Origin: Blasia pusilla | Taxonomy: Eukaryota | Direction: 5' to 3' | Assembly (NCBI GenBank): GCA_050084515.1 | Contig: CM114271.1 | Location: forward strand, 29,388,001-29,452,000 | Length of the DNA: 64,000 bases | In this document: one piece after another, positions 3,001-55,060 of the stretch | How the letters are laid out: every line of letters begins with the position of its first letter | Numbering within the stretch: position 1 is the first letter of the stretch | The notes under the pieces: generated by a model | The model's input: only the letters and a program-made list of their open reading frames with translations | Databases searched by the model: none | Told to the model about the DNA's origin: nothing | Made by a program: the position numbers and the translations under genes

Positions 3001-5500
3001 TTTTTGTAAAGTACCCTTCATGCGTAGGTTTCCTGCCAAAGGATGCTAGAGATTTTTGCCCCCGCTAAAGAAAGAAAAAGTTGGTAAGTCTTCACAATCT
3101 GCATTACTAAGCAATCAATGCTTCCAAAAATGCTCGCCAAAATGCAAGCACATTCTAGAAAGCAAAGACCTGAAGCTAGGGATGAAAACCATTGGTTGGC
3201 TCAGCTCCTTGCTCCCTATGTTGGCCCCTAAGATAGGAATGGAAAGAGGCATGTTTTGGCATTTAGAAATTTCCATTGCCCACATGTTAGCCGTGTGGAC
3301 TCCCAACAAACTTGCACAGATATTTGGGAGGCAGGTGTAGAGACTAGAAAGGGTTTAGTAGATCATGTAGGATCATTTCAGGATGCCATGCGCTGCATTC
3401 AACAACATCATGCTTTTCTATGTGAGGACTTCTCGCAGACTCAATATGAGAGTGTATACAAGGCCTGGAGGAACACCCAAAAACATGTCATTCTTCAACG
3501 ACTCAAGATTGCCATGCAAAACATGTATATAGATGGCATGGGCCTTTCTATAAAGGAGGCATTAATCCTGGTATGTGGAACCTTACCTTGTTCACCCATT
3601 TCTCGATTTCATGACCCACTTTATAGCCAAATTGTGACAACAACTCACACATTTATTTTCCTATAAATTGTGTCAGGGAGGCTTGGACAAGGAAATTGTG
3701 GACTCTTCTGACAATGATAGAACAAGATCCTCGCCTCTAAAAACACCAAGGGTCCTAAGTAACAAGCAAAAAGAGAATCGAAAGGAGATCCCAATCATAT
3801 GCTTGAATGCCACATGCAGAGCCACCTCAACAAAAAAAAACCCAAAAAGGAAAGTAGCTCACCTTCCAAGAAAAGGTGAGCATGCGCAGACCCTCCATCT
3901 CTGGGCCGGAGGGTCTCTCGCAAGCTAGCCAGCAAGTGGCATATTCCACAAACTTAGAACCAAGAAGATCCCATATTACCTTGCACCCCTTCATCTCTCA
4001 TATTGTCTCCACCCAAAGTACCACCGCCAAGCAAGCCGCCAATCCCACTATGCCTAGCTAAAGTTCTTGTCAAGCTGGTGGTTCTTGGCATAAGGCACAT
4101 TGGGAGTGTGACCTATGGGAACCCATCTCCATAAGATAACCAGGTTTATTCTCTTAACCTTACAACCATATTGGTTCCTTTAAAACAATGGTTCGATAAT
4201 TTACACTCTCGCTTATTATGTTTATTTAATGTTATGCAGGTACTAGCTACTACACAGAAAATAATTCAAATGAGGAGTGTCAACCACCCTATCCACCAGG
4301 TTTGAGGATTGATAACCTGTCACATACACATATAATGTCATTTGAAATCTATCTTTTTGGGTTGAGTTACCAGCAAGGGTGGATTTTGTACCCATTGATT
4401 TTCTGCTTGTTTATAGGTTCTTGTTAATCTTTGGTGTCATACTTTCCTATTTGGTGCAGGAGATTCCCACAACAACTAGTAGGTAAGTACATGCTCAAGG
4501 TGGCTCAGATGCACCAATCTACGATGAGGATATCAACTCGACTCCTATGCAGGAGTTTAAGACGCCCAGTTGCCAAATGCTACCTTAGTCATGGTTGACG
4601 CCTTACGGTTACATGCAACCCCTGAATCCCACATGGTGCTCTTATGTATCAAAAGCCATCGGCTGTTGCCAGACATTTTCATCTTCCAAATTTTTCATAC
4701 ATGCATGTGCACGGTGCTAAGATGTGCACCTGCAATCTGGTTTCCTAACTACATACTAGATCTATAGCTAGGAGAAAGGCCCACCCATTTTCAGTCACCT
4801 AGTAATGTTTGTACTCAGGTTTTTCACTAAGGGGATATCTACGGCTGCTTTCAAATTGGAATTGAAGGGTAGAGTGTAAACCTGGTTGTTTTCTCACATC
4901 TGATGCTCGCCACCTCATATTGCATTATCATTTTTGAGCAGATCTCTTTGTCTATGTGCTCTTCCCGGGGTTCAGGTCTGAGATGTTGTTGTATCCATTG
5001 CAGTTCTTGGCCATCTTTGTCTGTCAATGGGTCATGCAAGTGTAGTCATACTCATGGCTGATTGTCATAGTTCCATTAGAGATGAGACAAACAGAGTTTT
5101 TGCCAACCTATGTGGTTGTTCCATGTGGTAGGATACTTTAACCTTCTCACACATTCGTCTTTTATTGAATCATATAGTGTGTTTGAAGTGGATTCCTAAA
5201 AGGTTGCTTTACAGATAGAGAATAAGGCTGGTTTAGGATATTCTTCGTGGTACGCTTCTTTGCAAATCTGAGAATTTGGATGGTTTTCGCCAGACTTGCA
5301 TAGATGTAGGCTATTTTAGAGATTTGAGTTTTTGGTTCATATACCCTCCTTACCATTTATCATTGAGTTATGGCAATGCAGGGTTGACAGCCTTGCATCC
5401 TCATATATAGGATTTTGGTAGAATTAAACTATGTGAATACGATAAGGATGCATGTTAGAGCTTCGCAATGAAGTGAGTGCGCGACACATTGCATGTACAC

Positions 5501-6027
5501 TCACGAACTCAATATATTTAGAGTTCAATACCGTTTCTCCTTGTCATTTTTTCTCTGCTATTTGGTAGGAAATATGACACGACCATTCACTCATGTAGAA
5601 GGTCTCCAACTATGGCGGGAGCCAAACCCTACTTGCCATTTCTGCCAAATACGCATGAAGAGGGGCAAGCCATTTGAGCCCGCTTGGGATCCCCTGGAAG
5701 ATGATTTCTTTTAGTTTTGATTATCTAACATAGCTTTGGTTATCGATGGGGCAACTTAAGTCGGCCGTCTCATGGAGTTCCTCCGATTTCGGGGCATGGC
5801 TTACCATGTGGGTTTAGGTGATGATGTTCATCGAACTAGAGTCATTGTTTACAATATCGTTTGCGATTGTGAGAAAGTCATGTGACTCCGCAACACGTCG
5901 CACGTACCCTCACGAACTCTATATATTTAGAGTTCACGAACTTTTCTCTCAGTCAGTTTTGCTCTGCTATTTGGTAGGAAATATAACATGACTATTACTA
6001 ATGTTGAAGGCCTCTACCTATGGCGGG
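5501..6027. repeat. ~409-bp tandem repeat array, left part (unit 1 and start of unit 2), interrupted by the retroelement at 6028
   Basis: TCACGAACTC(A/T)ATATATTTAGAGTTCA starts at 5501 and again at 5910. Unit 2 resumes at 16399 (AGCCAAACCCTACTTG), matching unit 1 at about 5620. Confidence 0.85.
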
Positions 6028-6543
6028 TGTCACGTCTTTTAGGATAGATCGGTGGGATCTAATAGAGCGCCTTCATGAGTAGTGGAGGACATGCCCAGTA
6101 GGTCGAGGGTGACCTGCTGAGGCCCTTGGAAACCTGAGATAACAAAGGTTTCCTTCTTCGTTCGGCTCATTTGGAGCCATATTGAGGAACTTACTATTTT
6201 AGGTAGGTACCATTTTGAGTATATGATCGACTTACTATTTTTGGTAAGTGGCCCTTGACCTCCTACATCAGGTCAAGAGCCAAGGAGGTGACTTGGGAGA
6301 ATAGGTTACCATGGAGAGAGCTTGGGAGAGGAGAGGGGTATACCTCAAGGAGAGAGAGCTTGAGAGCTCATTCTCTCTTTGTTGAACCTCTTGGCATGAG
6401 GCGGAGGAGCTATAGTACCTTGCCTTGTGAGTGTAACCCAAGCCTCTCATTAGGAGAGTGGGTTTGGTTTGACATGAGAGAGACTGCACACCTTTGAGAG
6501 CTATGGTGTGAGATGGTGGAGAGAGAGATTGGATCTTACTTTA
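6028..6543 (+). repeat. Split direct repeat A1 (~516 bp)
   Basis: Nearly identical to 15754-16267 (roughly a dozen differences by eye). Similarity ends after GGATCTTACTTTA. Confidence 0.95.
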
Positions 6544-8260
6544 CAAAGAGAGAATGAGAGAATGAGAGAGTAGAGAGCTTCATGGGGGAGCTCGCTGGTC
6601 ACTCGCTGTTTTTGCAGGTTGGGGACCGTGTTCCCCGTTCAGCGGCTCATGGGAGTGCTCACCGGAGCAAGGGCTGCTTTCATTACTCTTTGCATTTGCC
6701 GATTTTTCGTGTGGAAGAGTGGCGCGCGGAAGCGCTGCCCAATTTCTGATAGGGATTGAGTATGGGGGCGGGTTGCTCCATGCTGGTGCTCTCGGGAGCA
6801 TCATGTAACTTGCTGATTTGTATTTTTACAGATGTTACATTTTCGTTGGGAGAAATCAGCGCGGGAGCGCTGCCGAATTTTGTGTAGGAGAAAGAGACAT
6901 TGGGCTTTACGACAGTCCCTGTCAGTTTTTACTGAAATGTCCAATTCTAAATACTTTTTGATGGTAGCGTAGATCGTGAAGCTGTGCACGCTGTGCAACA
7001 AACAGTGCACAATTTGGAGTTGCGAGCAAAAAGTTATGGGCAATCTTGTAAAGCTGCCATTGCTAGGCGATTTTTAGGGTTAAATCGTGCAAACCCTAAA
7101 TCATTCGCCACACCGGCGGCGGCCGTCGCCATCATAGTCACCGTCACCGTCGACGGTCAACCTTCACCGTCATCGATTGGCCGTCACCATCAGCGGTCAA
7201 CCGTCACTGTCAAGGGTCCACCGTCCATTGTCCACCCTTTGGGTGCCATTGCCGCTATTACGGAGTGGAGGGTCTTCCATGACGTTCGTTGATTCCTTGA
7301 CTTGCGTCGCCACCACGTACTTTGTTTTGGCCGCCACCGTCATCGCAGTTTCTTCATCAACCAGTGAAGGAAGATGACCTCCGGTTATGGTGTTTGAGTT
7401 TTGATTTCATGCTGCTATGTTGAGATTGGTAGCCGCTCGACGACGATCGAGTATCGTGCCGTGATGCCCGTAGCCGCAACGCACCGCCGATTGCCGCGCC
7501 GTGCCGCTCATGGCCGCACCGCACCATCTCGATCGCGAAGCCGCACCGTCATTGTGGATCAGAGTGTGGGATTATTATTGATTGAGGAGGGTATGCCGCC
7601 GAGTGCCGCATCCCACCATCGAGGGCCGTGTCGTTCGTAGCCGTTCCGTGCCGCCTGCAACGCCGCACCGTTCCGCTGGGACCGCATCGTCTATCGAGGA
7701 GTTTTGAGCAAAGATCAGACGGGAGGAGTATGACTTGCTGATTGGAGGAGTTGTCTCCACGATCGAGTTGGGGTTAGATTTGCGATTCTTTGAGGAGCGA
7801 CATCGACATGTGTTCAGTTACCCATTCTCGGTCCTTTACCCCGCACGTGTGAGGGATTTCGGGATTTATTTGGGGATATTGGGTGTGTGGATGCTTTGAG
7901 AGAATCATTTATGTATGTGGTTTAGGGACATAGACCTGTGTGGGATGTCCGGAGTTGAGGGTAGGTTGTCGATGAGATGATAGCCTGGTCGATTTTCCGC
8001 ACCACGCCCGCGTGTTGCCGTGACGTTACACGTCTCGGGGAGAGAGTGTAGATCGAGTGCCGCATGTTTGGGATGAGTGATTGAGGGATTCCTCACGAGG
8101 TTCAGAGTGATCGGGTGAGAGGGGCACGAGGGTCATCACGGAGTCTGTTCGGGACTTTGAGAGGCGAGGTGGTGAACCCGAGAGTAGCTCTAGAGGTTTT
8201 ACGCGGAGTGGCGCGAGGTTTCGAGGGTCTCCACGTGAGGGACCACCTCGACCTCCTTCT

Positions 8261-9624
8261 ATGTCATCGTCAGACAAGGGGGAGGGTGTAGAGGAGTTTG
8301 TGAGCACATCGCCACACATTGTGAGTGGTCCAACCAGTTGGGCGTACGAGATGGACGACCGGGGTAGAGGACCGCATAGGTTTTCAGGTGCAGTAGGCAC
8401 GATTGAGTTGCACGATCTTATAGCAGAGTTTAGGAGTTGGTGCGACTCCCAACGGGCCAGGAACTCTAGAGAGTTTAACCCGTTTACAGCATGGAACGGT
8501 ATCTTCCAGCATTTAGAGGGGGCGCCCATGGACGATTACCATGAGTTCTCTTAGAAATATGCATGTGAGATCGAGGTGTGGAGGCTCTACTATGACCCAC
8601 ATTATGTGTCATGGACGGAGCCATTCCCAGATGAGGAGGAGGAGTCAAGAGAGGCTACTGCCTCTTCCACTAGTGACGTTTTAGGAGGGGTCACTCATGA
8701 CGGGAGCGATTGCACCGTCTAGTCGGGTTCGTCCCAGGTTCAACCCTGTGGTTGAGTTCTTTGCTGAGTTGAGGGCGAGCTACCAGGGGGTACGGACGGA
8801 GAAGTTGCGGAGCATCCACGACTTCCAGAGGCGCTTGGGTGAGAGTTTGCGTGAGGCTTACACTCGCTTGCGCCGGTTGATCAACGTCACTCAGGGGGTG
8901 ACAGAGGCTCAGGCTATCCAATCATGGTATGCGATGCTGGACCGGACCCTGCGGACACGGGTGCGGGAGGGGGTGCTTCTTATGAACACCTCCCCTACGT
9001 TGAGAGATGTTTTTAGGACCGCCGAGAACATTGAGCGCAACATGGCGGAGGAGAGCGTAGCCACCATGGGTTCTGGCGAGAGCGATCCACGATTGTATGC
9101 ACCACCGTGCAAAGAACGTGACTCGAGATAGGTTGACTGTGGCACCACGAGCTCAGGAAGGATGCCGAGAGGCCGTGCCACAGAGACCTGCTCCTTCATA
9201 TGCAGCTCAGCAGCAGCCGCCTACTATTACTTGTTGGTCATGTGGTGGCGCCCATCATCAGCGTGATTGCACTCGTCAGGGTCATGGACGTGTGCCTCAG
9301 CATGGAGGAGGAGATGGTGCTGCACCAGGAGGTTATCAGTGTGACTATTGTCAGAGGTATGGTCATACATGCGCCAGGTGTTTTAGTTTACATCATGAGT
9401 TACGTCTGGACCAAGGGCCAGAGAAGGCACCAGAGCGAGTAGTCGGTCCGGGTGGGCCTAGAGATCGTGCTCCAGGTGGTCCCGTTGGGGGACGAGGAGC
9501 TGGAGTTTCCCGACAGGGTGGTGGAGCTGCCCATGGAGGAGGTAGAGTACCACCACCTAGACGCGCTGAGGGAGATGCCGGACGTGAGGCTGGGATGGTC
9601 GCTTTCCGATACAACAAACTATAG
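8261..9624 (+). pseudogene. Retroelement gag with two CCHC zinc knuckles (in-frame stops)
   Basis: Segments FQRRLGESLREAYTRLRRL, CWSCGGAHHQRDC and CDYCQRYGHTCARC. Homologous to the minus-strand gag at about 62250-63250. Confidence 0.85.
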
Positions 9625-10264
9625 GAGCAGATTGCCGCTATGGCATTGAGGTTACCCGATGCCGATCCGTGGCATCGACATCATATGGAGCGACCCACAG
9701 ATCTGGAGGATCCTGGATGGATGTGCGGGTTGCCCAGATGGAGGCCGCCGCGAGACGCAGACGCGTGGAGCAGCCGCAGAGTTGGATCCACAAACGAGGG
9801 GAAGCCAAGAGAGCAGACTAGGCTTCCTCAATCTTTCACGTTGTCCCGGCGATGAGGACCCCATCGATGGGTCCTCATCAAAGTTCCTGGAGAGTTGGTA
9901 ATGTTGTTGGTGTGCAAGCACGGAGGGTGATGGGAGAAGCGAGTGCGACGACTCTTATTGTTGATGCTCAGGAGGGGCATGTGTCGAGCACGTTGTTGGG
10001 GGCGGCCACCGTTGTGTACCACACTCCTTTATTTTCTGCTTCCGATGTTGTGACGTTGGGAGGTACGCCCGCCGAGGCTTTTCGGCTGGCCGCTTCACTA
10101 TGTGAGCGCGGAGTTGGAGTTCCTGCATCACGTTCAGAGGTGATTGTAGAGGAGGTGATGGACGTGCCCTTGGAGCGGATGCTCGGGCCATCCACGTCAG
10201 ATTCATGGCAGGCTGCGGCTGCTAGGATGGCGGAGATGCCCGCTAGACCGCGATAGAGCGTGCC

Positions 10265-10717
10265 ATGGCTTCTCCTGGTGTTGTGTTGCTGGATAACCGA
10301 GGAGAGGTCTTCCAGTTGGTGAGTCCTGGAGGTAGAGCTTTTAGTCCACAGCGCGTCTTGTTGGATTCAGGAGCGCAACCCTTGATGTTGGGGAAAGCGT
10401 CATTCAGAGGATTGGGCTTGACGAGAGCCGATGTGGAGTGTTGTCCATTTCGGATACATACATCCTTGGGTGGAGTGAGTACCACACAGTATATCACCCG
10501 ACAGGAGGTCGTGGTGAGGATTCGCCCGGGACATCCTACAGATGAGTCCGTGGTGTGCGCCAAGGCGATAGTGACTGATGCTGAGTCCTACGACGTCTTG
10601 GTTGGTGGAGCAGTGTTATACCCGATGGGGTTTTCCCTAGATTATTGGGAGGAGTCAGCGTCCTACAGACTAGGATGGCAGTCAGGTGATGGGCGCCTTA
10701 GCTCATTACCCGTTTGA
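10265..10717 (+). pseudogene. Retroviral-type aspartic protease domain
   Basis: RVLLDSGAQP active-site motif and downstream YDVLVG motif. Confidence 0.85.
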
Positions 10718-11070
10718 TTCACAGGTGCAGTGATCGAGCAACGGCCAGGAGAGATGGCGACCTTAGCAGCATTTAGCAATGCCATTACTTGGCCTAGTGA
10801 TTTGATTGAGGGACATGTCCATGCAGAGGATACTCCCGTTCCTGACATTTCTATGGAGAGGAGTGTTATGGTAGCTGCATCATTCCGTGGAGGAGAGGTG
10901 CCGCTGTGGGGCTCGGACCGAGAGCTTCAACGATTGCGGATCGCACGCGTGCAGGCCGTGTGGAGCGAGGCGTTGCACAGGCGTGGTCTGAGGAACCCGA
11001 GGTAGCGGGGAGTGCTACGATGAAACCCTTGGATACTACACCCATTGTGTGGTGTACCCCGGAGGAGGGT

Positions 11071-12010
11071 ATTCGAGTGTTAGATCTCTTTGGAGGGATT
11101 AGCACCGGGTTAGCTGTTGTTTTGCAGGCAGGAGTGCGAGTACAGCAGTACTTGTATGTGGAGAGTGATGATGTTGCGAGGCGCGTCTCACTACGACATG
11201 TGGCGCAATTACGCCTATGTTTTCCCGACTTATTGTCTGCGTCCGCAATACAGGGGTACCAGAGTTCCCTACCGAGGGATATTTTGTTGTTGGGGGCGCA
11301 GGACTTAGAGCGGGTAGGGACCATTGATTTGGTCATTGCCGGTTGGCCATGTCAGGGCCAATCGAGTGCTGGACGAGGCAGCGGGTTGGCTGACACTCGG
11401 TCCAGGTTGTTTTGGGAGATGTTGAGGGTCTGACGGTAGTTGCAGGAGCACCAGTCTTGTTCTCCAGCCTACATTCTGGAGAATGTGCCGATCTTAGGAG
11501 ACTCCAGGTCACGGGTCGTGACGAGTGCTCATCAGGTGCGTGCATGGATCGGCCCTGCAGTGTTCTTGGATGCGGCGAGTGTAGGTTCTAGAGCCCATCG
11601 CCCGCGTCTATGGTGGACCAACTTGGTGCCCCATGCGGTGTTATGGAGGGCATATGCGAGACTAGAGCGCCCCTCCCCTTTGTTAGTGGATTCCATTCTG
11701 GATCCAGGTCGTCGATCACAGGCAGTGAGGCACAATGATCGACCACCGCTGACTGTGGTCAACAAGGTAGGCAGGCCGCGGGCAGCCTTGCCCACGTTTG
11801 TGAGTTTTCCCGCTTCCTATGCATACAAGGAGGCCGGTCCTGGCTTGGTTTGGGATAACCAGGTTCAGCGGTTGGTGGAGCCCAAGGCCGACGAGAGAGA
11901 GCGAGCGATGGGATTTCCCACAGGAGTGACGACAGTACCATCAGTGTCAGAGGCATCACGACGCCATGTCTTGGGTCAGGCGATGGACCTGAACTGCTTG
12001 ACATGGATCC
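11071..12010 (+). pseudogene. C5-cytosine DNA methyltransferase domain (DNMT3/DRM-like signatures, canonical motif order) embedded in pol; two in-frame stops at 11431-11439
   Basis: Motif I IRVLDLFGGIS, motif II YVE, motif IV IDLVIAGWPCQ, LFWE, motif VI YILENV, motif VIII AHRPRLWWTN, motif IX ERERAMGFP, motif X LGQAM. ORFs 10906-11433 and 11440-12318 share one frame. Confidence 0.92.
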
Positions 12011-12599
12011 TCAGCTTGGGAGTGGATGAGCAGCGTCGTATGAGATCGCGACAGATCACAGCGGTTGCGTTGGTGAGCCCCATGCCTACCGAGACGATGG
12101 AGGCAATAGCTGGGGGCGAGACCCGAGGAGATCTACGCACCAGGGGAGATCGGGAGAGACACCCTTGGACTTCTTGGGATGTTTTGAAGGTACGCAAGGA
12201 GATGATAGCCACAACATCGAGCGTGGTTTCGGGCACTGCACGTGGAGGAGATCAGAGTTTGCAGTTGGCTGCAGGAGAGCGGCCGAGTGTTGTTGTTCGA
12301 GACGGGGTTGCACCATAGCAACCACCGATACCCGCGCCGGAGAGTCCTACCGTAGTCACGATGGAGACTTGGGAGCCAGATATGGGCCCTAAGTTGACAG
12401 GAGGAGAGCGGCGCCGAATACATCAGCTCCTCAGGAGTTATAGGAGCTGCTTTGCGTTTAGCATGGAGGATTTGGGTACGCTCAAGGGACCGGGGATCCG
12501 CATTGAGTTGTCGAGTGATATGCCGATCTTCCGCGACCCCTGGTGCTGATGATATGGAGAGGGCTCTGATTGAGTAGGAGCCAAGACTTGGTCGGAGCA

Positions 12600-13820
12600 G
12601 GACTAGTGGAGATGTCGCATGGGGAGTATGCACCGCCACCTTTGTCATGCCCGCCAAGAAGGATGTGCATGGCAAATCGGACGGATAGGCGGATGTGTGG
12701 GGATTACCGACCTATCAATCGGCATTTAAGTCCGATAGGTATGCCATGCCCACCCTTGAGGAGATCTTTGATGCGATTGGTCACGCAAAGGTCTTGATTC
12801 ATTGATTTGCGAGTGGATACCATCACCTGCCTATCGATTGGAGGACACGCAGAAGACGGCATTTTGGGGCATCGATCCTCGGGAAGGATTGTTTGTACCG
12901 GTGGCGGTTCTTACCATTTGGGTTAAAGAACGCCCGGCTGAGTTTCGAGGGTCATGGATAGGATCTTGGCTGGTCTGGATTTTGCTAGGTGTTATATTGA
13001 TGACATCGTAGTCTTTAGCGCCACGGTTGAGGAGCATGAGCAACATCTAGAGGAGGTATTTCGGACGATTGCAATTACATGGGCTGAAGCTACATCCAGG
13101 CAAGTGCAAGTTCTTCTCGACCAGATTGAGTACTTGGGTCATACGATATACCGGGGCCTTGGTGTTCAGCAGACAAAGGTAGAGGCTATCTCACGCATTC
13201 CACCCCCTACAGATGTGAGCCGTGTTCGCGCATTCATGGATTGGCGAACTTCTATCGGCGATACGTCAAGGGATTGATTCGATTGGAAGCTGACCTTGCT
13301 CACCAAGGTGGATCACGAGTGGCACTGGGGGGATGAGCAGGAGCGAGCATTTCAGTTGCTCAAGGACAGGTTGACGTCCGCACCCATCTTGAGGAGACCG
13401 ATCAGGGGGCGTCCTTTCCAGTTGCACACAGATTGGAGCATGTTTTTGTCCTTTCCAGTTGCACACAGATTGGGGCATGTTGGGGCTTGGAGTGGTGCTC
13501 ACCCAGCATGATGATGAGGGTAGAGAGTTTGTGGTGGCTTACGCTAGCCGCTCGAACAACGCTGCAGAGGCGAAGTACAACTCGTATGAGGGTGAGTGCT
13601 TGGCTGCGGTGTGGGCTGTCGTGCATTTCAGGTGTTACTTATTCGGCAACCCCTTTACCATCATCACTAATCATCAACCACTGAAGTGGTTGATGGAGTG
13701 CGACAAGCTTACAGGGAAGCTTGCGAGATGGGCTCTGTTGTTGCAGGAGTATGATTTTCAGGTTGTACATAGACCTGGAACGCTGAACCAGGATGCAGAT
13801 GGGTTGAGTCGTAACCCATG
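12600..13820 (+). pseudogene. Reverse transcriptase and RNase H (frameshifted)
   Basis: RMCGDYRPIN, KTAFW, CYIDDIVVFS, IEYLGH, FQLHTDW, VAYASRSNNAAEAKYNSYEGECLAAVWA, ITNHQPLKWL, NQDADGLSR. Confidence 0.93.
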
Positions 13821-14199
13821 CCCGAGTCAGCAAGATGCGACTGGAGCTCGATGGCATGGAGAGAGTGATGAGGAGTCGGTGCCAAGATGGCACGCGTCAG
13901 CCTATTTAGGCATGTTGGCTATGGAGAGCCAGAGTGTGGAGACTTCGATGGCGAGGTCTAGTGGAGAGTCTTTGGATCCCGAGGCCAGTGAGGACACGAC
14001 AAGTGGCCGAGATATTCATGATGATGGAGTAGTCTTAGAGTACCTTCGTACTGGCAGCCTTGCGAGCACCATGGATGCTAGAGAGCGGGATCGGATCCTA
14101 CAGCGGGCGAGACGGTTCCGTTGGGAGGGGACACATGTTTTGAGGGTTTGGGAGGATGGTAGAGTACGCGTAGTGCCGCATCCTTTGCAGAGAGCACGA

Positions 14200-15110
14200 C
14201 TAGTGCAGCATGCCCACGAGGAGTTGGGTCACTTTGGGGTGAAGCGGACGTATAGCTTGCTCCAGATTCAGTATTGGTGGCGAGGCATGCAGATTGACGT
14301 TCAGCAGTTTGTTGCCAAGTGCATGGTGTGTGATCGGGTCCGAGCATCGTTCAATGCTCCGACTCCACAGTTGCATCCATTACCGATCATGGGCTTAGGG
14401 TATAGATGGAGTTTGGATTTTGCAGGACCTTTGCCCTTGACAGAGCGTCACAGTCGTTATGTGTTGGTGATGGTCGAGCACTTCTCGAAGTGGATCGAGT
14501 TGGTTGCATTGCCTGACAAAGCAAGTGAGGGAGTAGCTTATGCCTTCCTTGAGTCTTTGAGTCATTATGGCGCACAGGTGAGGTGTTGATGCACCAGGAT
14601 ACCGAAGTTTAGCGGTGAGTTCCAGGCCTTGTGTGATCAGGGGACGATCGACCCCGCACGAGTTCGCGAGATCATCCTGGCGGATGGATTAGCGGAGAGA
14701 GTTTGTGAGGCGGTGAAGAGGGGTTTACGCAAGTATGGCTTGCAGAGAGGTCACCTAGGAGATTGGGACCTCCGTTGCCATGGTTGGCGATGGGATACTG
14801 ATTCAAGACGGGCATCCTTAGCGTCTTTTTCACCGTATTTGCTACTTTATGGCGAGAGCCGATTTACCCACGGCCATTCGTCGAGAGATCTTTGGTGAGG
14901 TCTTTGAACCTTGATGACCCAGATGTATGGGTGCGAGCATGTTCTCGAGGGCTGAGTTATTTCGGAGAGTGATGCCCATGGCGTTCGAGAACTTGGCGAT
15001 TGCACAGCATCGGGATACGTTGAGGTATGCGACTATTCGAGGTGGTGGTTATCGACCAACTACTCGGAGGTTTCATCAGGGAGATTATGTCTATTTGCAG
15101 CAGACGGCAC
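14200..15110 (+). pseudogene. DDE integrase (HHCC zinc-binding domain and rve core)
   Basis: HEELGHFGVKRT...CMVC, WSLDFAGPLP, YVLVMVEHFSKW, GLAERV, FSPYLLLYG, FHQGDYVYL. Confidence 0.92.
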
Positions 15111-15297
15111 CGACGACGTTGGATGTGATTGAGGGCGCACTATCCTGAGAGTACGTGACATTTTGCCATCGGGTGTTCTCTTGCTGGAGGGACGCGATGG
15201 TATGGTATGGAAGGACCATGTGCGTAATTGTGCGCCATGTCACCTTCCTAACATTGATGGTACAGTAGATCCGAGCTTAGTAGTAGTTCCTGTAGGC

Positions 15298-15444
15298 TTG
15301 CGTTGTATGTTGTGTGGTTCTGCCCGTGGTGCGGCCACGATGCTAGTCTGTGATGGGTGTTCGAGAGGATGGCATATGACATGTTTGACGCCACCTCTCA
15401 CTAGGGTTCCTCAGGGAGGATGGATGTGTCCCAGATGTACATAG
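15298..15444 (+). pseudogene. C-terminal PHD finger of pol
   Basis: CMLC...MLVCDGCSRGWHMTCLTPPLTRVPQGGWMCPRC fits the C4HC3 spacing. Confidence 0.9.
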
Positions 15445-15624
15445 AGAAGGTAGTTCTACATTCCGACTTGTGTCTATGACATGGATGACAAGGAGGCGAC
15501 TAACGATGGGGCCACATGAGCACCCGGCCTTCTTGCTCTTAGCGTCCGAGAGATGTATGTCATGGTAGGTAGGGATTGATGGCTATCTGGAGTTAGAGGA
15601 CCTAACCACCAGCTAGGGGGGCGA

Positions 15625-15751
15625 TTGGAGATATTTTGGTTCTTCTTGTCTTGTTGTTTGGATGCCATGAGTTAGCATGGGATCATGCGTGTTTGTGTGT
15701 GTGTTCGGTGACAGCGATGTATGTTGTGTAGCGATGTGTATGCGCACGATA
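15625..15751 (+). repeat. Split direct repeat B1 (127 bp), preceded by purine tract AGGGGGGCGA (15615-15624)
   Basis: Matches 16268-16394 almost exactly. Confidence 0.95.
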
Positions 15752-15753
15752 AC

Positions 15754-16394
15754 TGTCACGTCTTTTAGGATAGATCGGTGGGATCTAATAGAGCGCCTTC
15801 ATGAGTAGTGGAGGACACGCCCAGTAGGTCGAGGGTGACCTGTCGAGGCCCTTGGAAACCTGAGATAGCAGGTTTGCCTTTCGTTTCGGCTCATTTGGAG
15901 CCATATTGAGGAACTTACTATTTTAGGTAAGTACCATTTTGAGTATATGATCGACTTACTATTTTTGGTAAGTGGCCCTTGACCTCCTACATCAGGTCAA
16001 GAGCCAAGGAGGTGACTTGGGAGAATAGGTTACCATGGAGAGAGCTTGGGAGAGGAGAGGGGTATACCTCAAGGAGAGAGAACTTGAGAGCTCATTCTCT
16101 CTTTGTTGAACCTCTTGGCATGAGGCGGCGGAGCTATAGTACTTTGCCTTGTGAGTGTAACCCAAGCCTTTCATTAGGAGAGTGGGTTTGGTTTGACATG
16201 AGAGAGACTGCACACCTTTGAGAGCTATGGTGTGAGATGGTGGAGAGAGAGATTGGATCTTACTTTATTGGAGATATTTTGGTTCTTCTTGTCTCGTTGT
16301 TTGGATGCCATGAGTTAGCATGGGATCATGCGTGTTTGTGTGTGTGTTCGGTGACAGCGATGTATGTTGTGTAGCGATGTGTATGCGCACGACA
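15754..16394 (+). repeat. Split direct repeats A2 (15754-16267) and B2 (16268-16394)
   Basis: A2 matches A1 and B2 matches B1. Ends GACA. Confidence 0.95.
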
Positions 16395-16800
16395 CAAGAG
16401 CCAAACCCTACTTGACACTTTTGCCAGATGCATATGAAGAGGGGCAAGCCATTTGGGCCGGCTTCGGACCCCCTCAAAGACAATTTCTTTAAGTTATGAC
16501 TATCTAACATAGCTATGGCTATCAATGGGGTAACTTCAGCGGTCATATGGAGTTCCTCCGATTCCTCGGCATGGCTTATCATGTGGGTTTACGTGGTGAT
16601 GTTCATCGAATTGTAGTTGTTGTTTACAGCGTCGCTTGTGACTATGACAAAGTTATGTGACTCCGCAAGACGTCGCATGTACCCCCGCAAACTCTATATA
16701 TTTAGAGTTCATGACTGTTTCTCTCAATTAGTTTTGCTCCGCTATAAGGTAGGAAATATAACACGACCATTCCCTAATGTAGAAGGTCTCCAACTATGGC
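16395..16800. repeat. ~409-bp tandem repeat array, right part (rest of unit 2, start of unit 3)
   Basis: Colinear with 5620-6027. A third AACTCTATATATTTAGAGTTCA occurs at about 16690. Confidence 0.85.
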
Positions 16801-18342
16801 AACTATGGCACCAGAGGCTGACCTTTTTCATTAAACGCATACAAGAAAGTTATTTTAAAGGTACGTGAAGCAGGTTTGTTCATCATATTAGAAGTTGAAA
16901 TAAGAACACCATGGTTGGGAAAGTCCAATCATTTGAACCTGATTCATAACTTGCCAATGCATATGCATCAAATTCTAACAAAATCACAATATATGTTGAT
17001 TACTCGGTAGTAAGACTTGGTGATTCGCTGTCTTGCCTATCTCTGATTCAAGTCTTTATATTTAACTTTCTGCTTATGGTTGAAAGGGGGCAATGTCTCA
17101 CGGGCCACTGTGTTTTGAATGTTCATGGGATGCTTTCAATACTTTTTGTGTAAAGCTTCAACCCATTCCATCTTGCATCTCAGAGATCGGCCAAGTGGCC
17201 TATCTTCATTGAATGTTTCCCTTGGTCTCGCCCTTGGTTGCATTGGAGTTGGAAGCACTCCAACGTTGCAATCAAGCCTTGCCTTCAAAGTCAACAAGGA
17301 CTCATACATGCATGTGACTTACTACAGAGTATGGTCTTGCAAAATTTGGTTTGAGTTGGTGTCTTTGATGATAAACACTTCATTTCACATGCTTTCAATA
17401 GCTCGCAAAGATTCCTAAGGGTTTTCGAATTTAGAAGCATCTTGATTGGTCTGGTTATATGGAAATATGGGTTCAATCTCCTCTCCATCAATTCTATGGC
17501 TTTCAGGTCTAAGGGCAAGGGCTAATGTGCATGCTTTGGAATTTGTAAGACCCTTAAGACCTCCACATGCATCTACTTCTAAACTGTGGAGCGAGGAATA
17601 AAAGAATCTCCACCTTTGTGCTCCTAGACAACAACCAACAATTTTCCTATTTCAATGGGAGATGAAGTGAGAAAATGTGCTCCGCATGAGCATCTTATCT
17701 ATGCTGTTATGGGAGAGTGTCTTCTTGATTTGCAAACACCTCTATGTTTGACACATGACAATTGGGCAGCAAGAAAATATTTCACATACTACGGGCAGCA
17801 AGAAAAAATTGGAATTTATGTGCAACATCATTAATCTCTTCTTTTCATAGCCTTTACACTAGTTCTTCAAACACTTTTTTATTTCGCGTGGATCGCTCGA
17901 ACACCTTATCTATATTATTATATTATTATGGGAGAGTGTCTTCTTGATTTGCAAACACTTTTCTATTTCAACATCAAAATCAACTTTGGCGCATGTAAGA
18001 AGCATACGTCTATTCGTAGAGTGTAAACGCTCATTTGCACCCACATAGTCATTAATCTATTTGCTTCACGATCTGTTCACGAGGCTCTTCAAACACTTTT
18101 TTTATTTTTTTCTAAACCTTCTACTAGTGTAAGTAACATATGAATCCTTAGAAGCAAACTGAACTTCTAATCCCATGTTTGGTTAACTTATCCATTCAAG
18201 AGGACTCCGTTCATTCGCGTTCCCATTTTCGAAGGCCGTGGTATTTCCACGTTACAACAGGATTGTGGCTATGGTGGCAGGAGCGCGCACGGGGACTGCC
18301 TAACAGAGGAGCACGACGACCGCGACAGCATTTCCAAGCACA

Positions 18343-29879: not shown

Positions 29880-29950
29880 GAGCTCTCAATCCTTCATTCT
29901 CTCTTTGTAAATCAATATCTCTTAAAGCTCTCACACAATTTCCATCTCTC

Positions 29951-30006
<56 letters not shown>

Positions 30007-30418
30007 GTCAAACCAAACTCATTCTCCTAATGAGAGGTTGGGATTAGCTACAAGACGTAGAGGACCATAGCTCCGCCATCTCATACCAAGAGGTTCAACA
30101 AAGAGAGAATGAGTTCCAAAGCTCCCTTTCTTTGGGTATATCCCCTTCCCTCTCCTAAGCTATGTCCATGGTAACCTATGCTCACAAGTTACCTTCTTGG
30201 CTCCTGACATATTGTAGGGGATCAAGGGCCACTTCTTCAAGTGAAAAGTCAACTATGCTCCTAATTAGAACTTACCCTAAATAATAAGTTGCTCAATATA
30301 GCTCCAAATGAGCCAAAATGAATGGAAACCCTGCTCTCTTAGGTTACCCCAGGCCTCAACACATCCTCCTGAAAGGCACCCTACGGATACTCATCAATCT
30401 ATCCTAAAAGACGTGACA
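29880..30418 (-). mobile_element. Truncated 5' end (repeat A plus first internal bases) of the split-repeat retroelement family, with expanded (GA)n
   Basis: Reverse complement starts TGTCACGTCTTTTAGGATAGAT at 30418. It continues into TTTACAAAGAGAGAATGA as A1 does at about 6540, not into B. Confidence 0.85.
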
Positions 30419-33427: not shown

Positions 33428-34061
33428 TGTCACGTCCTTTAGGATAGATCGGTGAGATCTAGTAGAGCGTCTTCAAGAGTGGTGGAGGATAGGCCTAGGA
33501 GGTGGAGGATGACTTGTTGAGGCCCCGGTAAACCTGAGAGAGCAGGTTTTCCCTTCATTTTGGCTCATTTGGAGCCATATTGAGGAACTTACTATTTTAG
33601 GTAAGTACCATTTTGAGTATATGATCAACTTTCTATTTTTGGTAAGTGGCTCTTGACCTCCTACATTAGGTCAAGAGCCAAGGAGGTGACTTGGGAGAAT
33701 AGGTTACCATGGAGAGAGCTTGGGAGAGGGGAGGGGTATATATCCCAAGGAGAGAGAGCTTGAGAGCTCATTCTCTCTTTGTTGAACCTCTTGGCATGAG
33801 GCGGCCGAGCTATGGTCCCTTGCCTTGTGAGTGTAACCCAAGCCTCTCATTAGGAGAGTGGGTTTGGTTTGACATGAGAGAGAGTGCACACCTTTGAGAG
33901 CTATGGTGTGAGATTGTGTAGAGAGAGATTGGATCTTATTTTAATTGGAGATATTTTGGTACTTCTTGTCTTGTTGTTTGGATGCCATGAATTAGCATGG
34001 GATCGTGCGTGATTGTGTATGTGTTCGATGACATCGATGTATGTTGTGTATGCGCACGACA
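33428..34061 (+). mobile_element. Solo A-B unit of the split-repeat retroelement, with perfect 4-bp TSD CTGT
   Basis: CTGT|TGTCACG...CACGACA|CTGT. Colinear with 15754-16394. Confidence 0.95.
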
Positions 34062-34169
34062 CTGTCGACAGCAACGTGTGATAAAAAAAAGACAGGGACA
34101 GCAAGGTGCGGGCGATAAAAAGAGAGGCGATCGCTTTCTGAATAGATAGAGTTCACCCAGTCCAGAAGT

Positions 34170-44500: not shown

Positions 44501-46974
44501 CACAGACGAGCAATTGGAGATCGGTCGCGCCTCGCTGTCGATTCGTGGGTGTGTGAAGGTTGATCCGCTTACGAATCAACTATCGACTAGTTTGATTGTC
44601 AGCCGTAGAAGCTTTTGACGTACTGCACTTTCGGTTTCACATAATCTATTCGCGTTCATTCGAATTATCAAGCGACGGCTCCCTGAAGTTGCTTCGTCCA
44701 GGGACTGTTAATACGGCTTGCGAGTGTTCCATGGACTCATGAAATCAGTGTGTCCAGGGGGGAACAGTTGAGACAGAAGGAATACTTAATCCAATGATAA
44801 TACCACACGAGTTCTGCAGATAATTTTGGAACATCTTGCAGCTAATTAGGTCTCGGCCTTTCAGCGGGCATGTCACCGGCCATACCGGGATCCACAAAAC
44901 AGCAGCCAAGTGCAACGAGTCCTACGTAAGGCCGGTGTACATAAGTAGGACTTCCGAGATCCGGGTGTTCTGAGAGATCCTGTCATGTTTGAGTCTGCAG
45001 TTCGAAGAGAGTGGATATTCAGACAATCTCAGACCGTGATTCGTGCTTGCCAATGCCTTAAGGAAAAATATCTCTAAGGTTAGAATGTATCCGCGTCCGG
45101 CATTCTTGCTAAGAAACATCCGCTACGATGTCCGGGGAGAACCGGGGTTACGTGCTGACCAAGCCGGAAGAAATTTAGAATTTCCGACCCAGATTTCCAG
45201 CCACCGGCATATAAGGTTCTCCTTTGTATTTGTATCTCTTTAGCAGGATTCAAGAAAATTTCAAAATTTACTGTTCTCGTCTGTAGAGACCCGCAATGTA
45301 CTTGTTCTCGCCAAAAAAAACTACCCGGACCTTGATCCGCTATGCATTTGGGTAACACCCGCGACGATAGCCTATAGATTGTTACCAACTCCAAATGAAA
45401 AGCTAACGAAAACAAAAGTCACAAAGTTGTAGGATGATCTTCAATTCTGTCCGAGGGTCCATGGAGGCGCGCGGGGTATTAGCTGTTCAGGAACAACATT
45501 AGTTCTACCCAAGGGTGCTACATCAGAACTAATTATGATGTAGCTTAGATATGGATATTAGTTGGATCTTTGAACGATCGTCAACTTCCAAGTCCGGCCA
45601 CATGTTCATGCTTTATCTCCTTAACAACATTCAATTGTGTCTACAGTCAAGTGATTGTCGCAATATTTGTACATATGAAATAGTCTATGCAACGTTGTCG
45701 TATAGTAAAATCAACCAGTGTGTAAACTCCTTCGTCATTAAGTGTTAGATAGAGTTTCATTAGTATTAAGTAAATTGGCTTAGAAAAAGGAGATTCTTAT
45801 GTTTAAACCTTTTTATGGTGCCTCTTTTATGCGGGCCCAACTTTAGGAAAAGGAGGTAATAAATAAAAGATGACTTTATAAAAGTAAAGTAGTTGCTTTA
45901 ATGAAAAGCAAAAGTAGTCTTGGTTGGTGGTTAGGTTAGTTGGGGTAATTTGGAAAATATCATGTGGGTAAAAGAGGATATTTTGGAAGAGATAAGAGGA
46001 AATCTACTTGTGTCAAAATGTGATTGGCTAAGCCTTGAGAGGAAGCCATGTGGCACAAGATAAGATAAGCTCTATTTCGTACTCTTGTGGATCCCTTGTG
46101 AGTATATAAAGAGGAGGGACCTTCAAGGGTTCATCACCTTCTATTCCACATCTTGAGACTCTCGTGTCTCGCTTGAGTGTATGGCTTTGGGATTGCTTGC
46201 TCTTCCAATGAGAGTGGATCACCCCTCTTGGAAGAGTAACCTGATCATGGTCTATTCTTCAAGAGGTTTCTAGAGTGTGGTGTGTGTGTGTGGGGGGGAT
46301 GAGAGGTTTGTCACCGTAGAGGAGTTTAGTCATACTAAAATAGCGGATGTTTTGGCTTGTTACTTTCCCAATGAGAGTGGATTACCCCTCTTGGGAGAAT
46401 AACTCCGCCAAAACCCATTCTTGAGGAGAGTAGAGAATGTCTGTCAAGCATGGATAGCGGTGGAGCACGAGCTGTGCCCGACTTTCCTTTCCTCAATCCT
46501 TACCATGTCAAGGTACTCTTTGTAGATAGGCACTGGTTCACTCGCTATTTAGTTTATCACTTTGGGGAGGCGTTCATGAACCAGGTCATGCAATCTCCAA
46601 CTCCGGTGATTCTTCCTATCGTCACATATGGAAGGACATGGGATTGTACTTTGTATGTCCTTATATAGCGATCCATGGATGTCAATAGGTGTGGTCAAGT
46701 AGGGTTTAACACTAGTTGTGCTATCTTCCTCGTGTACAAACGTAAAATAGTTTATAGGGATTTTATAGTTAGGAATTTCGGGGTCCGATGTTACGAAGAA
46801 GTGATCGCCTCGACACTTCCATTTGTGATACTTGTCGTGAGAGAATGGAGAGTGTACATCATAATTTTGTATTGAAAAAGGAGAACTTATTAGAGAGTTC
46901 ACCTTGCATCAACCGCATCTACCGCAACTAGAAGGCCCGCCCTTGCTCGAAGAAAGATTCTCGACACGACAAAA

Positions 46975-46992
46975 TGGTGCTTCCACTGAGAG
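46975..46992 (+). promoter_or_regulatory. Primer-binding site TGGTGCTTCCACTGAGAG, probably tRNA-Thr
   Basis: Starts with TGG 3 nt after the LTR end. Its complement CUCUCAGUGGAAGCACCA resembles plant tRNA-Thr 3' ends (recalled, not searched). Confidence 0.7.
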
Positions 46993-47038
46993 CTCTTTGA
47001 GGCGGTAGTTTGTGTTTGCAAGTTGGAGTCTTAACAAG

Positions 47039-51519: not shown

Positions 51520-52199
51520 AATTGAGACTAAGTGCGCAAGGGTGATGCGGAAAAGTTTGATTGCTAATTGAAGGTGTTTGAAGTCAAGAGAGACCAAGGA
51601 GGAGTTTGAAGGAAGAAATTGCTCTCAGCTTGGAGAATTTGGAGACTTGAGAAGATAAGCTCAATGCCTCACTTAGTTTTCAAAGTAATTGTTATTGAGA
51701 TTGGAAGAAGAGAGAAAGAGAAACAAGTCTTTAGCGCTTGTAGACTACCATACGGGTTTGATAACTGGATTTTGAGTCATGGGTCTTGATCTTTGGTGAT
51801 CACAATCAGTGGTCTTCTTATTACCAAGAACTTCTCCCTTAATTCTTTATCTGAGAGTTCAGATGTATAGTTAAAAGTGTTTTGAGTGGCAAGTGGCGTC
51901 TGGAAAAGTTCTTTATTACCAAAAGTTCAATTTTGTTAATAGTGGTGACATGGTTTTGGCATTTAGTAGTATTTTTCCACCACAATGAGTGTACAAAGAA
52001 TAAACATTGATGTAGATATCCATATCTAGATACCACTTGCAATTGGATCTCAGAAATGATCATCAGCTTGAAAGTCGTGCCACATAGCTAAACATTAAAT
52101 CCGCTCAACCATATATACTTAATCGAGGAGATTCTTGACGGATGAATCGTTCCACCGTTAGCACGAGATCCGAATCCTCTTTCCTTGGTGCTAAGAATC

Positions 52200-54692: not shown

Positions 54693-54699
54693 GTCAACA

Positions 54700-55060
54700 T
54701 GTCCATGAGCTCTTGAAATGCTTGCTCTTGATCATGGCCTTGAAGGTAAACTCCCATGATCCCCGTAGCTTCCTCACATCATAGAGCTTTACACCATGCC
54801 GTAACTCCTTAAATTCCTCCACAAATGGGGCAAGATAAATTTTCATGTTACCTCCATGAACCTCGCCATGAACACTCTCCTTCCATTGAAAAGGAGGGCA
54901 AGCATAACAAAAAAATTCTTTGTTTGCAACCAAGGAGGTAAGTTATAGATTACTAGTGATATTGGCCATGTTGATCAAGAACTATATTTGTCTAAAAGTG
55001 GGATCACTCCATAAAGAGCTAACTCGAATCTACAAATTCTCTTTTCTTCTCTGTCTTGGA
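54700..55060 (-). mobile_element. CACTA/En-Spm transposase (Transposase_21-like) fragment
   Basis: Minus strand reads STWPISLVIYNLPPWL and NMKIYLAPFVEEFKELRHGVKLYDV...FTFKA. Confidence 0.8.

Follow-up and report, generated by a model that had tools for sequence, protein, structure and literature searches.

Split direct repeats in an integrase-encoding, DNA methyltransferase-carrying Ty3/gypsy-type retroelement of a liverwort, and a proposed route to its layout

The retroelements PAT, TOC1 and Ngaro, which have the DIRS order of split direct repeats (A1–internal–B1-A2-B2), encode a tyrosine recombinase and usually leave no target-site duplication (TSD), and the split-repeat layout has previously been tied to that class of enzyme. 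The one earlier mention of A...B-A-B repeats together with Gypsy domains concerns an alga and comes without an explanation: the legend of Fig. 4c in de Mendoza et al. (2018; PMC5890265) describes the repeats of KnitGypsy-Dnmt3 of Klebsormidium nitens as DIRS-like and its domains as Gypsy, and the section of that paper on the element gives no TSD, termini, primer-binding site (PBS), polypurine tract (PPT) or mechanism. The same sort of asymmetry, in miniature, appears in the legend of Fig. 6 of Craig et al. (2022; PMC9940879), according to which the left and right repeats of Gypsy-7a_cRei of Chlamydomonas differ by an 8-bp piece; the missing piece measures 113–129 bp in the element discussed here, and no DNMT is listed for the Chlamydomonas one. 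The first-pass annotation of this locus had brought up, for verification, the name Troyka, which also denotes LTR retroelements that encode a DDE integrase and have atypical termini. The name does not fit: Troyka elements occur in animals, produce TSDs of 3 bp and have CG...CG ends, and the abstract that describes them does not mention split repeats (Kojima, 2025; PMC12440569), whereas 4-bp TSDs, TG...CA ends and a plant host are found here, and the identity was rejected on the TSD length and the termini.

The element occupies positions 6028–16394 of the window (the whole 64,000-nucleotide stretch of DNA that was analysed), measures 10.4 kb and has the order A1–internal–PPT–B1–2 nt–A2–B2; its features lie on the plus strand. 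A1 (6028–6542), which begins TGTCACG, is the sole repeat at the 5' end and is followed by a PBS-like motif; B was looked for after A1 and none was found. At the 3' end, a conserved polypurine-tract-like AGGGGGG(CG) (15615–15623) adjoins B1 (15624–15751), a repeat of the terminal segment inside the element, with TA in place of its last CA, and a 2-nt spacer AC (15752–15753) leads to A2 (15754–16266) and to B2 (16267–16394), the right terminus, which ends in CGCACGACA. A1 and A2 are 97.1% identical (517 aligned bases) and B1 and B2 99.2% (126 aligned bases), which confirms the split repeat that had been read from the letters of this locus. Two equal long terminal repeats are therefore not what this family carries, as all five complete copies begin with A alone and finish with B-nn-A-B.

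The termini, TGTCACG... on the left and ...CGCACGACA on the right, have the TG...CA form seen throughout the copies of the family. The insertion site is a satellite of approximately 409 bp, and because the flanks read CGGG on the left (6024–6027) and CAAG on the right (16395–16398; two G>A differences from the left copy), the 4-bp TSD is inexact. An empty satellite monomer has CGGG only once, so there are four extra bases at the element, and dropping them raises the satellite alignment score from 91 to 97. A solo A-B repeat elsewhere in the window (33428–34072, plus strand, 92% identical to A2-B2) is flanked by an exact duplication, CTGT/CTGT, and among the complete metagenome copies (TCTC, AAGG, AATC, AACA/AATA) the 4-bp TSD is exact in three of four, with three of four bases agreeing in the fourth. 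Of the earlier statement on TG...CA ends and a 4-bp TSD, the ends and the four added bases thus hold, while the duplication at this particular copy is imperfect. Both properties belong to the Ty3/gypsy pattern of TG...CA termini with a TSD of 4–6 bp.

The order of the coding region is gag–PR–C5 DNA methyltransferase–RT–RNase H–DDE integrase–PHD. The gag-like region (8685–9624) has broken frames and no Pfam match in this copy, and is recognised by two CCHC zinc knuckles (CX2CX4HX4C motifs in the ORF translations). It is followed by an aspartic protease-like region with the motif LLDSGAQ (10247–10717), at the position where the intact relatives P0158 and P0168 have a gag-asp_proteas domain. The methyltransferase domain (10846–12318; PF00145, 4.5e-8) retains PCQ and ENV motifs and is interrupted by one stop codon; against the DNMT portion of polyprotein P0155 from Klebsormidium, identities are 54% and 45%. 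The C-terminal part of the reverse transcriptase is readable (12942–13277; PF00078, 3.2e-7), and the following segment (13393–14898, with a frame break at 14589) holds RNase H (PF17917, 1.3e-32), the integrase zinc-binding domain (PF17921, Integrase_H2C2, 1.5e-16) and the DDE integrase core (PF00665, rve, 1.2e-4), with 48% identity to P0155 over RNase H–integrase. A PHD finger (15133–15444; PF00628, 5e-12) stands at the C-terminus, where no chromodomain was matched. The gag with CCHC knuckles and a Pol arranged as PR–RT–RNase H–integrase are those of Ty3/gypsy elements, and 6028–16394 is a decayed Ty3/gypsy-type copy of a PR–DNMT–RT–RNase H–integrase–PHD lineage. Neither the window nor the three complete loci for which ORFs were listed showed an intact copy. 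The first-pass annotation had noted the rve integrase and the lack of a tyrosine recombinase, and both readings agree with the domain searches: Pfam found no tyrosine recombinase family in 24 ORFs taken from both strands of the element, and there is no Phage_integrase or other tyrosine recombinase in the Pfam lists among the 240 homologues listed. The repeats are thus those of the DIRS order, A1...B1-A2-B2, with rve and Integrase_H2C2 in place of its tyrosine recombinase.

In KnitGypsy-Dnmt3, a Gypsy-type Pol likewise carries a Dnmt3-like C5 methyltransferase between PR and RT, and, judging by the PF00145 homology and by the position of the domain in P0155, the present element has a C5 methyltransferase, putatively Dnmt3-like, in the same place. 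DIRS-like repeats combined with Gypsy domains are found in the window and metagenome copies and, on the Klebsormidium side, in the printed legend. The hosts differ, an alga there and a liverwort-like host here, but the element belongs with KnitGypsy-Dnmt3, and a liverwort member of that kind is new. The methyltransferase, the PHD finger and the link to KnitGypsy-Dnmt3 had been missed in the first annotation. Also new are a conserved PPT at B1, a covarying putative self-priming site of 15–17 nt at A1 and the [B-nn-A] scheme proposed from the two.

Further copies establish that the layout is not peculiar to one locus. A second copy (55590–64000, minus strand), of an approximately 70% identical family, runs off the window, and its 3' end reads PPT, B1' (56169–56064), tt, A' (56061–55697) and B2' (55696–55590), with B1' and B2' 98% identical; the block that ends this copy at 55590–56169, noticed earlier as B-spacer-B with different sequences, is accordingly B-tt-A-B. 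A third, truncated copy (52100–54735, minus strand) has the PPT, B'' (52534–52419), the spacer ac and A'' from 52416, and the stretch read, 51700–52720, showed no further B. The three copies are approximately 70% identical to one another. A truncated 5' fragment contributes an A (29909–30418, minus strand) that is followed, from 29908 downwards, by the PBS-like motif and not by B.

PPT-B-nn-A is present at all three 3' ends in the window, PPT-B1-nn-A2-B2 at 17 metagenome loci (13 unique) and A...B-nn-A-B in five of five complete copies. AGGGGGG(CG) directly precedes B1 at every 3' end read, and the metagenome loci and all three copies of the window conserve both the tract and some 20 bases upstream of it. 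The spacer between B and A is always 2 nt (AC, GC, AT, GT or TT) in the three window copies and the 17 loci. B follows A1 at none of 20 5' ends, which disposes of the case named beforehand as fatal to the reading, namely that most copies would have B after A1. The split repeats are the way in which this family is built and not a chance rearrangement. There are also insertions of the form A–internal–B, which have TSDs but no repeats; their terminal branches (median 0.064) are longer than those of B-A-B copies (0.048), though not significantly so (p = 0.14), and these insertions could have originated later by recombination between B1 and B2, or through collapse in short-read assembly.

Among the joints listed from DNA contigs and RNA reads, with 167 more beyond the listing, the best supported are A end–B start and B end–A start. 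Most copies have one and the same joint at A2|B2; locus L002 has one extra base, on the PPT side, and L014/L016 have CG plus 17 inserted bases, which is the pattern expected for joined cDNA ends. At L048, B-nn-A is followed by an inverted copy of bases 1–176 of A (166/176 identical) that stops exactly at the start of A, a structure that would match snapped-back plus-strand strong-stop DNA cut at an internal junction.

In Tf1/sushi elements the PBS pairs with the 5' end of the element's own RNA, which takes the place of a tRNA. Self-priming Ty3/gypsy elements of the Tcn1 type have been described in plants (Neumann et al., 2019; PMC6317226), and, as in both groups, the site after the upstream repeat is here complementary to the predicted RNA 5' end and not to a tRNA; the difference is that those groups have ordinary LTRs, and that a PHD finger is found here where chromoviruses have a chromodomain. 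The predicted transcript start and self-primer, CTCATTCTCTCTTTGT (6367–6382), lies 28 nt downstream of a TATA-like box, TATACC (6339–6344), and is the exact reverse complement of the putative self-priming PBS directly 3' of A1 (6543–6558). This 16/16 match was reached by none of 200 control 16-mers, and in the predicted fold, MFE as well as centroid, this pairing forms the closing stem. The exact reverse complement after A measures 16 nt in the window, 16–17 nt in L033/L035 and 15 nt in L001/L079, and its counterpart within A is located before the A end by 176 nt in the window, 174 nt in L033/L035 and 138 nt in L079; three families thus show the pairing with three different sequences, that is, with covariation. 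At 10 of 18 5'-end rows the observed match was reached by none of 200 control 16-mers, while at seven of 18, including the most diverged complete copies (L016 and L052), complementarity is no better than in the controls. The TATA-like box recurs 27–31 nt upstream of the motif in four A copies of the window, in the second copy and in L079, with no match to the pattern in two L035-family rows. The read-start table has no pile-up at 6367. RNA reads that cross A2|B2 (10 in X22, 7 in X23) fit read-through or solo repeats, and a poly(A) site in B may be another source of them.

Starting from the anatomy, TSDs, conservation and complementarity observed in the copies, we infer an RNA start, a priming step, a form of the cDNA and a joining of its ends which, together with an assumed bias toward the left junction, give a somewhat favoured account of the A...B-A-B layout through reverse transcription and an internal junction. 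Transcription would begin inside A, approximately 175 nt ahead of its end and some 28 nt past the TATA-like box; the first 16 nt or so of the RNA would pair with the site after A1 and prime the minus strand, as in Tf1, and plus-strand synthesis would start from the PPT. Since the PPT adjoins B1 and the self-priming site adjoins A1, reverse transcription would build repeats of the form [B-nn-A] and a cDNA [B-nn-A]–internal–[B-nn-A]. The ends recognised by the integrase, TGTCA... and ...ACGACA, would then face each other across 2 nt within every repeat unit instead of forming the physical ends of the cDNA. Cutting of both strands at the junction of the left unit would yield two 3'-processed ends, and the physical ends (A end and B start) would be joined before or after the cut, A2|B2 being that joint; the predicted product, flanked by a 4-bp TSD, is A–internal–B-nn-A|B, and cutting at both junctions would give A–internal–B. 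That the DDE integrase cuts the abutted internal junction, that the cDNA ends are joined (in a circle, in a concatemer or after insertion) and that A–internal–B is a regular by-product is a tentative combination, held with rather less confidence than the general account. Random cutting at either junction predicts the mirror form A-B-nn-A–internal–B, and the absence of this form among the 17 metagenome 5' ends counts against the model.

Formally, both this element and PAT, TOC1 and Ngaro can be written as a circle in which two [B-A] units stand in tandem and which is opened at one of its B|A joints. The circle junctions of the IS3 and IS30 families have two inverted ends with a spacer of 2–3 bp, both strands of which are cut by a DDE enzyme, and an old and discarded model of retroviral integration used two-LTR circles. 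Both resemble the present junction in that inverted ends are abutted with a short spacer; they are, however, DNA transposons in the one case and an abandoned model in the other, while here the junction would be copied into every repeat unit by reverse transcription and its cutting is a proposed step.

A circular precursor may also be dispensable. In a less likely but still credible alternative, an intasome formed on the left [B-nn-A] junction of linear cDNA inserts both cut ends, and the free A end and free B start are linked by host end joining or by an end-to-end template jump of the reverse transcriptase. The product and the variable A2|B2 joint would be identical, and the present data are equally compatible with joining before and after cutting. 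In the standard scheme of reverse transcription the left repeat is the first to become double-stranded, and this might account for the exclusive use of the left junction (no mirror forms at 17 5' ends); against this, concerted integration of two fragments in vivo is undocumented for the family. Much less probable is a route like that of DIRS, Ngaro and PAT, with circular or single-stranded cDNA, a tyrosine recombinase acting in trans and the integrase as a relic: the layout is that of PAT and Ngaro, as the legend of Fig. 4c in de Mendoza et al. (2018) noted of the algal element, but complete copies have TG...CA inverted ends and 4-bp TSDs (inexact in the focal copy and in one metagenome copy), intact relatives of 1783–1946 aa retain integrase and PHD, and no Phage_integrase domain is present in the 24 ORFs or among the 240 homologues listed. 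An ordinary AB...AB element that lost its 5' B and gained another by rearrangement or mis-assembly is the least credible reading, and the copy census refutes AB...AB as the ancestral form of this copy: the solo A-B repeat flanked by a TSD does suggest that A-B may act as a block, but recombination between A1 and A2 of an A...B-A-B copy would yield it too, the same layout recurs in the three diverged copies of the window and, with a separate TSD each time, in 13 unique metagenome loci, and the 20 5' ends are without B.

The non-standard replication route suggested by the first-pass annotation is therefore plausible, and its warning about LTR-finding software is borne out, as such programs would pair A1 with A2 and leave B2 in the flank, so that the TSD test fails and the element is mis-delimited. 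The lineage, with its repeat-less copies, will be under-called in the genomes of bryophytes and streptophyte algae. Because split repeats occur here with the hallmarks of an integrase, the layout belongs to the scheme of reverse transcription and not to the enzyme of insertion, and the internal-junction model offers a concrete and testable account of how ends are rebuilt in both the integrase and the tyrosine-recombinase groups. If it is true, this lineage would be the integrase-bearing counterpart of Ngaro, PAT and TOC1, and perhaps an ancestor-like form of them.

Capture of the methylase was earlier reported for one alga (de Mendoza et al., 2018). The DNMT-carrying lineage is present in Klebsormidium, Closterium and liverworts, and the capture is therefore old or has spread among streptophytes; among the matches listed, the best homologues of the element are from Riccia sorocarpa (76%), followed by Calypogeia and Marchantia.

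The Gypsy-type retrotransposon at 6028-16394 of the window is delimited by two repeat segments, A and B, that are distributed unevenly between its ends. A repeat finder and blastn, applied to positions 5000-17500, place A1 at 6028-6542 and its partner A2 at 15754-16266 (97.1% identity over 517 aligned bases), and B1 at 15624-15751 and its partner B2 at 16267-16394 (99.2% identity over 126), all on the forward strand; only 2 bases separate B1 from A2, and the same searches found no B-like sequence 3' of A1. The element begins with TGTCACG... and ends with ...CGCACGACA. It lies in a satellite with a period of approximately 409 bp (monomers 69-84% alike, at 5473-6027 and 16398-16800), which it splits, and this insertion explains why the sequences at 5619-6024 and 16398-16800 are 82% alike. 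A satellite monomer served as the empty-site control: CGGG is present once in the monomer, and the element is flanked by CGGG on its left and CAAG on its right, which means that the occupied site has four extra bases, two of them with a G>A change. The 4-bp target site duplication (TSD) attributed to this copy in the first-pass annotation is genuine in its length, but its sequence is inexact.

Other copies in the window show the same distribution. A second copy, of a family approximately 70% identical, runs on the minus strand from the window edge to 55590 and ends in polypurine tract (PPT)–B1'–tt–A'–B2', with B1' and B2' 98% identical, in agreement with the B-spacer-B block first noticed there. 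A third copy, truncated and also on the minus strand, shows PPT–B''–ac–A''; a truncated 5' fragment on that strand (A at 30418-29909) has a PBS-like motif after A and lacks B; and at 33428-34072 there is a solo A-B unit between CTGT flanks. Taken by ends, B precedes A2 in 3/3 of the window 3' ends and is missing from 2/2 of the 5' ends. Within the A of the truncated 5' fragment there is a GA microsatellite expansion of about 60 nt (29950-30010, minus strand).

The copy counts draw on three sources: the window, 80 metagenome loci (L001-L080) obtained by a protein-guided scan of metagenome contigs, and one read mapping. The four complete metagenome copies all have the layout A...B-nn-A-B, where nn is a 2-nt spacer, and TSDs of 4 bp (L016, TCTC; L035, AAGG; L052, AACA/AATA; L054, AATC). 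The 3' arrangement PPT–B1–nn–A2–B2 is found in 17 metagenome loci, or 13 unique ones once L014/L016, L043/L044, L068/L069 and L004/L066 are merged, and the spacer is 2 nt (AC, GC, AT or GT) in all 17. At the opposite end, the PBS-like motif stands directly 3' of A in 18/18 rows of 5' ends, and Blast with A and B located no B on the 5' side of the integrase match at any locus. The first-pass annotation had allowed that ordinary repeats, with B after A1 in most copies, would speak against its reading; this arrangement is seen in 0/20 5' ends (the 18 rows, L001 and the truncated window fragment), and the split layout that it described is confirmed as a trait of the family. Among the rearranged loci, L073 and L075 are one internally deleted copy (L073:9321-9700), with A–PBS fused to pol approximately 680 nt before the integrase match, and L015:3300-3602 is a deletion derivative in which the PHD region runs directly into the second half of A, with B after it.

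The coding region was scanned with Pfam by separate ORFs. Gag with two CCHC knuckles, a protease-like LLDSGAQ motif and a reverse transcriptase can be read from the broken frames of the element, together with an RNase H (1.3e-32), an integrase zinc domain (1.5e-16) with part of the rve core, and a PHD finger at the C-terminus (5e-12). The element also encodes a C5 DNA methyltransferase (DNMT; PF00145, with PCQ and ENV motifs), which had been missed initially. As first reported, a tyrosine recombinase is not part of this repertoire: none of 24 ORFs on both strands matches one, and the Phage_integrase family is absent among the 240 homologues listed. The closest relatives among these homologues are from liverworts, namely Riccia sorocarpa (76%), followed by Calypogeia fissa and Marchantia polymorpha. 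The order PR–DNMT–RT–RNase H–IN–PHD is kept in the longer relatives (P0158 and P0168, 1783-1946 aa), and two further polyproteins, P0155 (1575 aa, Klebsormidium nitens) and P0195 (Closterium), have the DNMT and no PHD match. The DNMT of the focal element is 45-54% identical to that part of the Klebsormidium protein and occupies the same place in Pol. None of L035, L052 and L054 proved intact when its ORFs were scanned.

The name Troyka, which had been tentatively suggested for this type of element, is ruled out by the printed definition of that group, which describes elements of animals with CG...CG ends and TSDs of 3 bp (Kojima, 2025; PMC12440569). A closer precedent is KnitGypsy-Dnmt3 of Klebsormidium, for which the legend of Figure 4c gives a DIRS repeat structure with Gypsy domains, and the section devoted to it does not give TSDs, termini or a mechanism (de Mendoza, 2018; PMC5890265). 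Since this kind of element is already in print, the focal element is a new liverwort member of it. In another PHD-bearing element, the active Gypsy-7a_cRei, the left LTR is described as lacking the final 8 bp of its right counterpart (Craig, 2022; PMC9940879). KnitGypsy-Dnmt3 was found in the literature only in the 2018 paper, and a search for split direct repeats together with an integrase among LTR retrotransposons returned no Gypsy element, as judged by titles and the beginnings of abstracts. Searches on PHD fingers in Chlamyvir elements and on DNMT3 in Gypsy retrotransposons of Marchantia and Klebsormidium yielded nothing of use and no paper, respectively. No mechanism for a split-repeat Gypsy layout was found in a literature search that stopped short of subscription journals, figures and supplements. 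The reverse-transcription frame, the junction of abutted ends, the census of TSDs and the insertions without repeats described here appear to be new and testable.

Two signals would define that frame. The first is the PPT-like AGGGGGG(CG), which, with a conserved stretch of approximately 20 nt upstream, adjoins B1 in every 3' end read. The second is the sequence directly 3' of A1, which is the exact reverse complement of a site within A. The pairing extends over 16 nt in the window, over 16-17 nt in L033 and L035, and over 15 nt in L001-L079, where it spans two contigs that are 98% alike over 61 shared bases; the site lies 176 nt before the end of A in the window, 174 nt in L033/L035 and 138 nt in L079. 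The paired sequences themselves differ, with three families having three sequences. In 10/18 rows the observed match is unreached by any of 200 control 16-mers, in one more it is reached by 2/200, and in 7/18, including the diverged copies L016 and L052, it is no better than the controls. In the Tf1 scheme, the self-primer is copied into its own binding site. The two bases that distinguish L031 from L035 are changed alike in both partners of the pairing, exactly what self-priming with a copied primer would produce. In 6/8 copies tested, a TATA-like box precedes the motif by 27-31 nt (the two rows of the L035 family have TATGAA there). The pairing also closes the predicted fold in both MFE and centroid structures; since the folds were begun at the motif by choice, they show no more than the persistence of this pairing in the centroid structure.

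The non-standard replication route suggested in the first-pass annotation is plausible, and the following scheme is proposed for it. If plus-strand synthesis started at B1 and minus-strand synthesis after A, the reverse-transcribed unit would be [B-nn-A], and the cDNA would be [B-nn-A]–internal–[B-nn-A], with the start of B and the end of A as its physical ends. Neither of these is TG or CA, and inserted copies have their TSDs next to the start of A and the end of B. In the proposed cDNA, these two would be abutted 2 nt apart, forming the near-palindrome CGCACGACA-nn-TGTCATGAC, where 3' processing by one cut in each strand would produce a pair of recessed CA-3'OH ends, each with a 2-nt overhang. 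Such ends are the normal substrate of an integrase. The product A–internal–B-nn-A|B would result if the left unit were cut at its junction and the physical ends were joined (A|B). Most copies share a uniform A2|B2 joint; L002 has one extra PPT-side base and L014/L016 have CG plus a 17-nt insert, and these variants fit the kind of variation seen at joined ends. At L048:3244-3878, B-nn-A is followed by bases 1-176 of A in inverted orientation (166/176 identical), which stop exactly at the start of A and give way to unrelated flank. This locus looks like an inserted, snapped-back plus-strand strong-stop DNA, self-primed through the same complementarity and cut at its internal junction.

Cutting both junctions would leave a copy without A2 and B2, and A–internal–B loci fit this outcome. 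There are 21 of them, which become 19 when L025/L058 and L078/L080 are each counted once (L003, L005, L008, L009, L013, L017, L025, L028-L031, L037, L042, L059, L070, L072, L073, L077 and L078), and in these the ...ACGACA end of B adjoins unique flank. Five contain both ends, and exact 4-bp TSDs are present in three (L008, ATTA; L009, TACA; L031, TACA), with GGTA/AGTA in L029 and an ambiguous case in L030. Such copies could instead have arisen by deletion through recombination between B1 and B2, or they could reflect collapse in short-read assembly. They are dispersed among the B-A-B copies in the tree, and L003 is 99.3% identical to L002, a B-A-B copy at a different site. Once seven duplicate rows were dropped, the median terminal branch was 0.048 for B-A-B copies (n=13) and 0.064 for B-only copies (n=19), a difference that is not significant (Mann-Whitney p = 0.14); a value of p = 0.019, from the tree with duplicates kept, was discarded as biased. 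For the scheme of junction cutting, a single cut at either junction would predict a mirror form, A-B-nn-A–internal–B, which is seen in 0/17 metagenome 5' ends, so that a preference for the left junction must be assumed.

Two runs of DNA contigs and two of raw RNA reads from the same organism were aligned to 5900-15760, which contains one A and one B. Among the 15 joints listed, 11 lead from the last 60 or so bases of A (6483-6546) to the start of B (15618-15627) and 2 from the end of B to the start of A, both kinds being found in the DNA contigs as well as the RNA reads; the list also includes 2 internal skips and one joint within A (6221 to 6542). Joints from the end of B to 6544, or from the PPT to the start of A, are not among these 15 (there are 167 further joints). 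The RNA reads are of the sense strand and cover the entire element, and no pile-up of read starts is listed at 6367, the position of the putative self-primer motif. Most reads are only 90-95% alike to the focal copy (3397/4115 in RNA set X22, 3451/4138 in X23); they derive from relatives of this copy. A 1089-base skip (12482 to 13572) occurs in RNA reads only (12 in X22, 21 in X23) and in no DNA contig; a 37-base skip (13437 to 13475) occurs in the DNA contigs of set X5 and in RNA, which indicates that the focal copy has 37 extra bases relative to its relatives. In set X1, the focal copy differs from the reads by C>T at 307 places and G>A at 320, with 16-109 for other types of change; this excess suggests deamination of methylated cytosines in the repeat family, a decay that also fits the right TSD of the focal copy with its two G>A changes.

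Since no pol is seen in it, a separate element of 4.08 kb at 46527-50607 may be a non-autonomous element of LTR type. It is bounded by 446-bp direct repeats that are 99.3% identical and has an ORF of 575 aa, with a weak match to DUF4100, and another of 290 aa.
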